This document shows, piece after piece, positions 2,334 through 2,381 of a DNA stretch of 4,815 nucleotides (the first letter of the stretch is position 1; the number at the start of each line of letters is the position of its first letter). Source of the stretch: a virus (Duplodnaviria > Heunggongvirae > Uroviricota > Caudoviricetes); IMG/VR virus record IMGVR_UViG_2681813229_000016; one strand, given 5' to 3'. Below the pieces are notes generated by a model that saw only the letters and a list, made by a program, of their open reading frames with translations, was not told the origin of the DNA and made no database searches. The translations under genes were made by a program, and so were the position numbers.

Positions 2334-2381
2334 GCCGCCGGTTCTGGCTCCTTGTTTTCCCTGCCCCGGCGGCCTTTTTTT
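2334..2381 (+). terminator. Terminator-like hairpin plus T7 run on the plus strand (convergent/antisense terminator candidate)
   Basis: GCCGCCGG (2334..2341) pairs with CCGGCGGC (2366..2373); inner GGC/GCC can extend the stem. Followed by C then TTTTTTT (2375..2381). On the minus strand the A-run precedes the stem, so it is not a terminator for nanS-p transcripts. The large ~24-nt loop lowers confidence. Confidence 0.3.

Follow-up and report, generated by a model that had tools for sequence, protein, structure and literature searches.

A hairpin at the esterase/lysis gene junction of an Escherichia coli O157:H7 prophage is very probably the terminator of the small RNA EcOnc33

A GC-rich hairpin followed by seven T residues, at positions 2334-2381 of a prophage sequence, is almost certainly the Rho-independent terminator, and hence the 3' end, of EcOnc33, an Hfq-binding small RNA (sRNA) of about 80 nt that is convergent with the nanS-p esterase gene. 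The window, by which we mean the whole stretch of 4,815 nt that was analyzed, belongs to the late region of an E. coli O157:H7 lambdoid prophage, which reads along the minus strand. Annotated there, in order, are Q, a TerB fragment, DUF3927, the SASA/nanS-p esterase, DUF1378, DUF826, holin, YdfR, and lysozyme, and the hairpin sits in the 147-bp spacer that separates the esterase gene from the DUF1378 gene (Table 1). Positions 2040-2700 are 100% identical to many O157:H7 genomes, EDL933 included, and positions 1643-4815 are 99.94% identical to prophage Sp6 of strain Sakai and to the EDL933 prophage. EcOnc33 is already known, as it was catalogued in 2014, but it is uncharacterized.

The identification rests on a published probe. 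Tree et al. (2014, PMC4104026) listed EcOnc33 in their Table S2 as an RNA of prophage Sp6, on the minus strand in Sakai. An Hfq-CRAC peak of high rank was present in each of 5 datasets, a Rho-independent terminator was predicted, and Northern blotting gave a band of about 71 nt. What that study gives for EcOnc33 is the peak, the Northern size, and the terminator flag, without ends, promoter, structure, or function. The 35-nt Northern probe, AAATGTCGTTATATCCAAAGCAAAACATGCAGGAC, has a single match in the window, to minus-strand positions 2299-2333, which contains 0 mismatches and has a chance expectation of 0.00. Because a probe is complementary to its target, EcOnc33 is the plus-strand RNA of the window, and the part of the RNA covered by the probe ends exactly at the start of the stem (2333/2334). 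Moreover, the RNA is antisense to the late genes, because Sakai carries nanS-p (ECs_1527) and ECs_1528 on its plus strand, opposite to the minus strand listed for EcOnc33. The catalogued RNA and the one described here share locus, probe, strand, and prophage (Sp6, between ECs1527 and ECs1528) and do not differ at the locus; the difference is that the window as a whole is a mosaic unlike Sp6 to the left of 1643. The original prediction, made from the letters of the window, had offered the 3' end of a short plus-strand RNA within 2240-2386 as one meaning of the hairpin, and EcOnc33 is such an RNA. The gene is absent from the annotation in RefSeq and from Rfam 15, a cmscan search of Rfam 15 with E up to 1 returned no family over 2240-2390, and the main texts of the searched literature mention neither "EcOnc33" nor the flanking locus tags.

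Reads obtained in vivo cover the same positions. The RNase E-CLASH tables of Waters et al. (2017, PMC5286369) hold plus-strand EcOnc33 reads, among them an intramolecular chimera in which the two stem arms are ligated to each other (CCTGCCCCGGCGGCCTTT joined to ATTTGCCGCCGGTTCTGG; 99 reads), and therefore the arms are juxtaposed in vivo. Old Sakai coordinates were converted by the relation that the coordinate equals 1559431 minus the window position, which rests on two CLASH hybrid reads. When converted, the Hfq-CRAC peak falls at 2295-2342 and the merged CLASH read clusters span about 2293-2382 on the plus strand, with two CLASH read halves starting at 2301 and 2303.

Table 1. Positions of EcOnc33, its parts, and the flanking genes in the window
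Feature	Position	Strand	Basis
nanS-p, sialate O-acetylesterase gene (645-aa ORF, ECs_1527), convergent with EcOnc33	2387..4324	-	Annotation as SASA family carbohydrate esterase/9-O-acetyl-N-acetylneuraminic acid deacetylase
DUF1378 small membrane protein gene (60-aa ORF, ECs_1528), divergent from the putative EcOnc33 promoter	2057..2239	-	Annotation as DUF1378 family
-35 hexamer TTGACA of the putative EcOnc33 promoter	2266..2271	+	Perfect consensus, invariant in the aligned alleles
-10-like hexamer TAAAAA, 18 bp past the -35 hexamer	2290..2295	+	Conserved with 17- to 18-bp spacing in every allele
EcOnc33 sRNA, predicted at about 80 nt, 5' end inferred, 3' end in the U-tract	2302..2381	+	Probe, Hfq-CRAC, CLASH reads, CTGC start
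5' seed CUGCAUGUUUUGCU	2302..2315	+	Near-invariant; present in CLASH hybrids with arcA and ECs0890
Terminator stem-loop, 8-bp G/C stem with three inner pairs and 24-nt loop region	2334..2373	+	Fold, uniqueness, compensatory change, CLASH chimera
Invariant loop core CUUGUUUUCCCU	2351..2362	+	Identical in all aligned EcOnc33 alleles; both loop flanks have indels
U7 tract, termination site and presumed Hfq-binding 3' tail	2375..2381	+	Sequence; T-run kept across alleles; CLASH cluster end at about 2382

The hairpin and the T-run are a real structure and not a chance feature. Read off the plus strand, the 8-nt arms are GCCGCCGG (5', 2334-2341) and CCGGCGGC (3', 2366-2373), and the loop region between them spans 2342-2365. 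The 3' arm is followed by C2374 and then by the T-run, which stops 5 nt short of the TAA stop codon of nanS-p at 2387-2389 on the minus strand. RNAfold gave a minimum of -20.6 kcal/mol (z = -4.05), a value equaled in 0 of 200 shuffles, and the predicted structure made up 0.91 of the ensemble. The fold adds three inner pairs, GGC at 2346-2348 with GCC at 2363-2365, which turn the loop region into a 4-nt bulge and a 14-nt apical loop. A generic terminator scan limited to loops of 3-8 nt did not list the hairpin, because its loop exceeds that limit. A custom scan was therefore defined by a perfect stem of 8 bp or more that included 6 or more G/C, a loop of at most 30 nt, and at least 6 T in 8 bases no more than 2 nt from the stem. 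On both strands of the window the hairpin was the sole site that it returned, and any site at all was returned in 0.3% of 300 dinucleotide-preserving shuffles of the window.

Like a canonical Rho-independent terminator, the element has a stable, perfect, G/C-rich stem directly 5' of a U7 tract and lies at the 3' end of a discrete RNA. It differs from the canonical form in its loop, which is usually 3-8 nt long but here is 24 nt (14 nt at the apex once the inner pairs form) and ranges from 15 to 24 nt among alleles. Whether so large a loop is tolerated had been raised as a point to check by folding, and the predicted fold, the ligation of the arms in vivo, and the large loops of other sRNAs in the same slot all suggest that it is. 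The minus-strand version of the hairpin is similarly stable (-21.3 kcal/mol, z = -4.55), but the minus strand past the hairpin reads AAAUGUCGUUAUAUCC and has no U-tract. Thus, the hairpin is terminator-like on the plus strand only, as the original prediction had said, and a bidirectional terminator at 2334-2381 was rejected. The further statement that the hairpin does not terminate nanS-p itself also fits, both with the lack of a minus-strand U-tract and with the generic scan, which found no minus-strand terminator in 2240-2386.

EcOnc33 appears to have a promoter of its own. A sigma-70-type arrangement of TTGACA, an 18-bp spacer, and TAAAAA would place the start near 2302. None of the 8 aligned E. 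coli alleles or the 13 true IMG/VR fragments departed from TTGACA; the DEF10 allele has TTGACT. The sequence of the spacer between the hexamers varied although its length of 17-18 bp was kept. Because TAAAAA does not have the consensus T at position 6, it was missing from the output of the standard scan. If transcription starts at about 2302 and ends with the U-tract, the RNA should be about 80 nt long, which is roughly compatible with the published Northern band of about 71 nt; because the two values differ, the 5' end is uncertain. A coding function for the sRNA was considered and rejected, as the frame opened by the plus-strand ATG at 2306 runs on to the terminator without a stop codon. Also rejected as a gene was a 16-codon minus-strand ORF that starts at the ATG at 2332-2330, since strain M3 lacks that ATG and DEF10 has other sequence in place of the region.

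Conservation of the hairpin in related prophages, another check proposed with the original prediction, was borne out. Both promoter hexamers, their spacing, the seed, the stem, the loop core, and the T-run recurred in 8 alleles from E. coli and at 61 prophage loci of IMG/VR, which represent 13 distinct fragments. Variation was found instead in the promoter spacer, the middle of the RNA, and the flanks of the loop, and one allele carried a 15-nt insertion in the RNA body. The RNA start is conserved as CTGCAT(G/T)TTTTGCT; the seed thus varies at a single G/U position, and one allele has that position deleted. The T-run comprises 6-8 T in EcOnc33 alleles and 5 in a divergent plasmid hairpin (pO158_b). 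The loop core CTTGTTTTCCCT was conserved across all 8 alleles and 61 loci, and a remnant on the pO158 plasmid has the loop core minus two U residues. We speculate that the core may be a second functional site, for example an Hfq contact or a second seed.

The stem itself shows some covariation. One stem pair has a compensatory change from G-C to A-U in 2 of 9 terminator alleles, and the closing pair is seen as G-C, C-G, and G-U among the same nine. In the nine-allele alignment, 85.6% of cells were paired, compared to at most 54% in shifted registers. The covariation support that the alignment lends to the stem is modest, however, because 6 of 10 pairs never vary. Some IMG/VR alleles contain a stem mismatch.

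EcOnc33 is common in O157:H7 and occurs beyond it. A match was found in 363 of 5,426 complete E. coli genomes, 309 of them at least 99% identical. Among the matches listed, most were O157:H7, and the identical allele was also present in O55:H7, O103:H2, O121, and untyped animal isolates. A pattern made of seed plus stem retrieved 62 IMG/VR stretches, of which 61 were true loci. A pattern made of promoter plus terminator had no match in IMG/VR or in a one-genome-per-species set, and the spacer had no match among INPHARED phage genomes, sensitive mode included. The lone seed-plus-stem match in the one-genome-per-species set, in a Planctomycetaceae MAG (2986-3027 of the retrieved stretch), was set aside, as it has neither a 3' arm nor a T-run and looks like chance.

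How EcOnc33 might act is suggested by its layout, which follows the classical plan of Hfq-dependent sRNAs, with a 5' seed, then an A/U-rich linker, and finally a G/C stem and a U-tail. When the RNA is folded from 2302, the seed is paired only by way of a weak 3-bp hairpin. The top CLASH interaction of EcOnc33 is with ECs5359 (5 unique hybrids in both orientations and in replicate datasets; FDR, 2.7e-4). ECs_5359 is arcA, and the mRNA half of the hybrid read covers the arcA start codon. RNAduplex paired CUGCAUG-U-UUUGCU of the sRNA with arcA from -7 to +6, with weaker pairs upstream to -14, at -18.2 kcal/mol (z = -3.5), a value matched by 0.2-0.5% of shuffles. Alleles that have U in place of G at seed position 7 are predicted to pair more weakly, at -14.0 kcal/mol. 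A second CLASH hybrid, with ECs0890 (2 reads), goes through the same 5' region, and a single nonsignificant hybrid involves the EcOnc33 loop. We found no functional test of the EcOnc33-arcA interaction in the searched literature. Repression of arcA translation is the best lead to a function of EcOnc33, and it draws on an entry in a supplementary table together with the predicted duplex.

We propose that EcOnc33 would be transcribed in the lysogen from its own promoter, with a start near 2302, independently of the late operon that is antiterminated by Q. RNA polymerase would stop in the U-tract, five bases short of entering nanS-p in the antisense direction, and the stem and U-tail would form the usual binding site for Hfq. 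The single-stranded 5' end, CUGCAUGUUUUGCU, would then serve as the seed for targets in trans, of which the arcA translation start is the best supported; pairing there would block ribosome binding. An additional cis-antisense effect on the late transcript during induction is possible, because the RNA is fully complementary to the part of that transcript that lies between nanS-p and DUF1378.

That complementarity could instead be the main point of the RNA. EcOnc33 could act chiefly in cis, in the manner of a type I antitoxin: by binding the late transcript over a segment 63-142 nt ahead of the DUF1378 start codon, it would regulate DUF1378 or the lysis cassette. A divergent ORF of 60 aa with a hydrophobic N terminus lies only 27 nt from the EcOnc33 promoter, and divergent pairs of sRNA and toxin are a known arrangement. 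The overlap, however, ends 63 nt before the DUF1378 start codon and so falls short of the ribosome-binding site, sRNAs of the same architecture occupy the slot in E2348/69 without any DUF1378 gene, and the CLASH targets were recovered in trans through the 5' seed. A predominantly cis-acting RNA therefore seems improbable to us. Alternatively, the hairpin might matter on the other strand, in the late mRNA, as a 3' stabilizer, a processing site, or an RNase III site between nanS-p and the lysis genes, with the T-run being incidental. The late transcript must cross the region, and the fold would be equally stable there. Such an element would nevertheless have no U-tract past the hairpin, the T-run, an A-run on the minus strand, is kept in all alleles and has no obvious role on that strand, and the published probe, strand, and reads all belong to a plus-strand RNA. 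That the hairpin serves only the late mRNA is barely credible, even if the two roles are compatible and not mutually exclusive.

The original prediction had also proposed that the hairpin stops antisense transcription entering from further away. In its strongest form, this would make the hairpin a general insulator that shields nanS-p from distant plus-strand transcription, and there would be no dedicated sRNA gene. A terminator that works on the plus strand only and lies 5 nt from the nanS-p stop codon is well placed for that task, and read-through from upstream would also end at the hairpin. A distant source is not needed, however, when a conserved -35/-10 pair lies 30-70 nt upstream of the stem. 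Moreover, the window contains no credible plus-strand gene upstream, and the published data describe a discrete RNA of about 71 nt on Northern blots and an Hfq peak confined to the site. We regard an insulator that has no sRNA gene of its own as very unlikely, and we favor annotation of 2334-2381 as the terminator of the EcOnc33 gene rather than as an orphan antisense terminator.

EcOnc33 resembles sRNAs that have been described at the same place in other prophages. PasA (85 nt) and PasC (79 nt) of enteropathogenic E. coli (EPEC) E2348/69 are Hfq dependent (Pearl Mizrahi et al. 2021; Zhu, Shabalina & Storz 2026 preprint). Like EcOnc33, they occupy the slot flanked by a sialate esterase gene on one side and holin/lysozyme genes on the other, and they converge with the esterase gene. 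When both E2348/69 loci were extracted, they had TTGACA, 18 bp, and an A-rich -10 element, and the RNA 5' end was CUGC; PasA, PasC, and all alleles start with CTGC 5-7 nt past the -10 element. The PasC terminator lies 1 nt from the esterase stop codon, compared to 5 nt for that of EcOnc33, and the terminator loops of PasA (17 nt) and of the DEF10 allele (15 nt) are large, like that of EcOnc33. The esterase-holin spacer of prophage PP2 in E2348/69 (2367-2813 of the retrieved locus) contains two tandem promoter-plus-terminator units, PasA and a PasC/EcOnc51-like unit that abuts the esterase stop codon, an arrangement that fits the reported 236-nt minor species of PasA.

The resemblance does not extend to the sequence. 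The PasA/PasC family is defined by blastn, and local alignment of EcOnc33 was no better than that of shuffles (z = 2.2 against PasA and 0.4 against PasC, compared to z = 57 for PasA against PasC), such that homology to either was rejected. The stem sequences differ, and the seed reported for PasA overlaps the stem of its terminator, whereas EcOnc33 forms its hybrids through the 5' end. Moreover, the published homologues of PasA in enterohemorrhagic E. coli (EHEC) are EcOnc51 and EcOnc52, not EcOnc33; in the Sp4 prophage of Sakai, EcOnc52 is found where the esterase gene ECs_1088 has its 3' end. We conclude that EcOnc33 is an analogue that corresponds to PasA and PasC in position, orientation, and architecture but is not a demonstrable member of their family. 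It may be a very diverged relative.

Two other groups of prophage sRNAs were compared and rejected as identities. The anti-sRNAs AsxR and AgvB (EcOnc01-03; RF02703 and RF02702) are likewise short RNAs that bind Hfq and come from lambdoid prophages; they converge with the late operon and lie beside a moron. They differ in lying upstream of the esterase, just past the moron near PR', and in being 51-60 nt long with a common 3' region of about 42 nt; the cmscan search gave only STnc100 and a weak asX2 match in the window, neither of them in 2240-2390. HnrS (EcOnc10-12) is also an EHEC late-region sRNA that binds Hfq and has an intrinsic terminator, and it represses the global regulator hha at the ribosome-binding site (Poudyal et al. 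2026). This multicopy RNA of 66 nt is carried by Sp9, Sp10, and Sp12, and its CLASH-recovered sequence (...AAUCUUCUACCCAAUCAGUACAUUACUGCUGUGACUC) is unrelated and absent from the window. HnrS is outside the esterase/lysis slot because it lies about 3 kb from the PasA-like EcOnc51 in Sp12 and about 5 kb from anti-sRNA genes in Sp9 and Sp10.

The STnc100 match of the window was strong (101.6 bits, E = 4e-22; 4465-4631, minus strand) and was followed by an intrinsic terminator, GGCTGCGCATGGCGCGGCC with T8, at 4419-4437 on the minus strand. Together they constitute an sRNA of the EcOnc27/PasD type, encoded between the DUF3927 moron and nanS-p. Two sRNA genes therefore bracket the esterase gene, the STnc100-type gene upstream in the sense orientation and EcOnc33 downstream in the antisense orientation. 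In E2348/69, too, the flank of the esterase gene opposite PasA or PasC carries PasD2 or STnc100.

Some relatives of the locus retain the frame of the gene with other contents. In the DEF10 allele (2890-3013 of the retrieved locus), an unrelated RNA body is framed by the conserved promoter spacing and by a related terminator, CCGCCAGTC...GACTGGCGG followed by T7. The same promoter spacing and the CCGCCAGTC/GACTGGCGG arms with a T-run, around an unrelated body, were seen on a plasmid of an O158:H23 strain (1780-1870 of the retrieved locus). Comparison of these sequences suggests that the sRNA body has been swapped like a cassette inside a fixed scaffold. A broader reading, tentative and in our judgment possible but doubtful, is that the junction of esterase and lysis cassette in lambdoid prophages is a modular sRNA slot of which EcOnc33 is one allele. 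The scaffold would consist of a promoter of the form TTGACA-N18, CUGC at the RNA 5' end, and, directly next to the esterase stop codon, a terminator with a large loop; the interchangeable bodies would include PasA, PasC, EcOnc51/52, EcOnc33, and the DEF10 type. In the same reading, the invariant 5' seed of EcOnc33 would block arcA translation, and the O157:H7 prophage would tune the Arc regulon.

The rest of the window is less uniform than the EcOnc33 locus. Positions 488-1640 are only 94.7% identical to Sp6, and positions 229-487 have no counterpart in Sp6, which has an antirepressor gene there. The whole window in one piece is present in no complete E. coli genome, and the best match is 98.5% in 3 pieces. 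Within the class II holin gene (1515-1703 region, minus strand), 56 bp are missing at about 1640-1643 relative to EDL933 and Sakai Sp6. Because this loss shifts the holin frame, the lysis module of this copy of the prophage looks defective. Finally, a 13-bp hairpin, AAAACCCCGTTTG...CAAACGGGGTTTT, at 460-492 has A/T runs on both sides and resembles a bidirectional terminator. It lies between the lysozyme R gene (582-1115, minus strand) and a hydrophobic ORF of 60 aa that has a good ribosome-binding site (244-426, minus strand).

Beyond the 2014 catalogue, the value of the site lies in a gene that lacks annotation, a common sRNA slot, and a candidate lead to arcA. The bracketing of an esterase gene by two genes for Hfq-binding sRNAs mirrors the arrangement of PasD2 and PasA in EPEC. 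The pattern suggests that regulatory RNAs expressed in the lysogen have repeatedly come to land at the esterase/lysis junction. If the predicted pairing with arcA is true, EcOnc33 would link a largely cryptic prophage to global respiratory control, by way of the aerobic/anaerobic Arc regulon, in EHEC.
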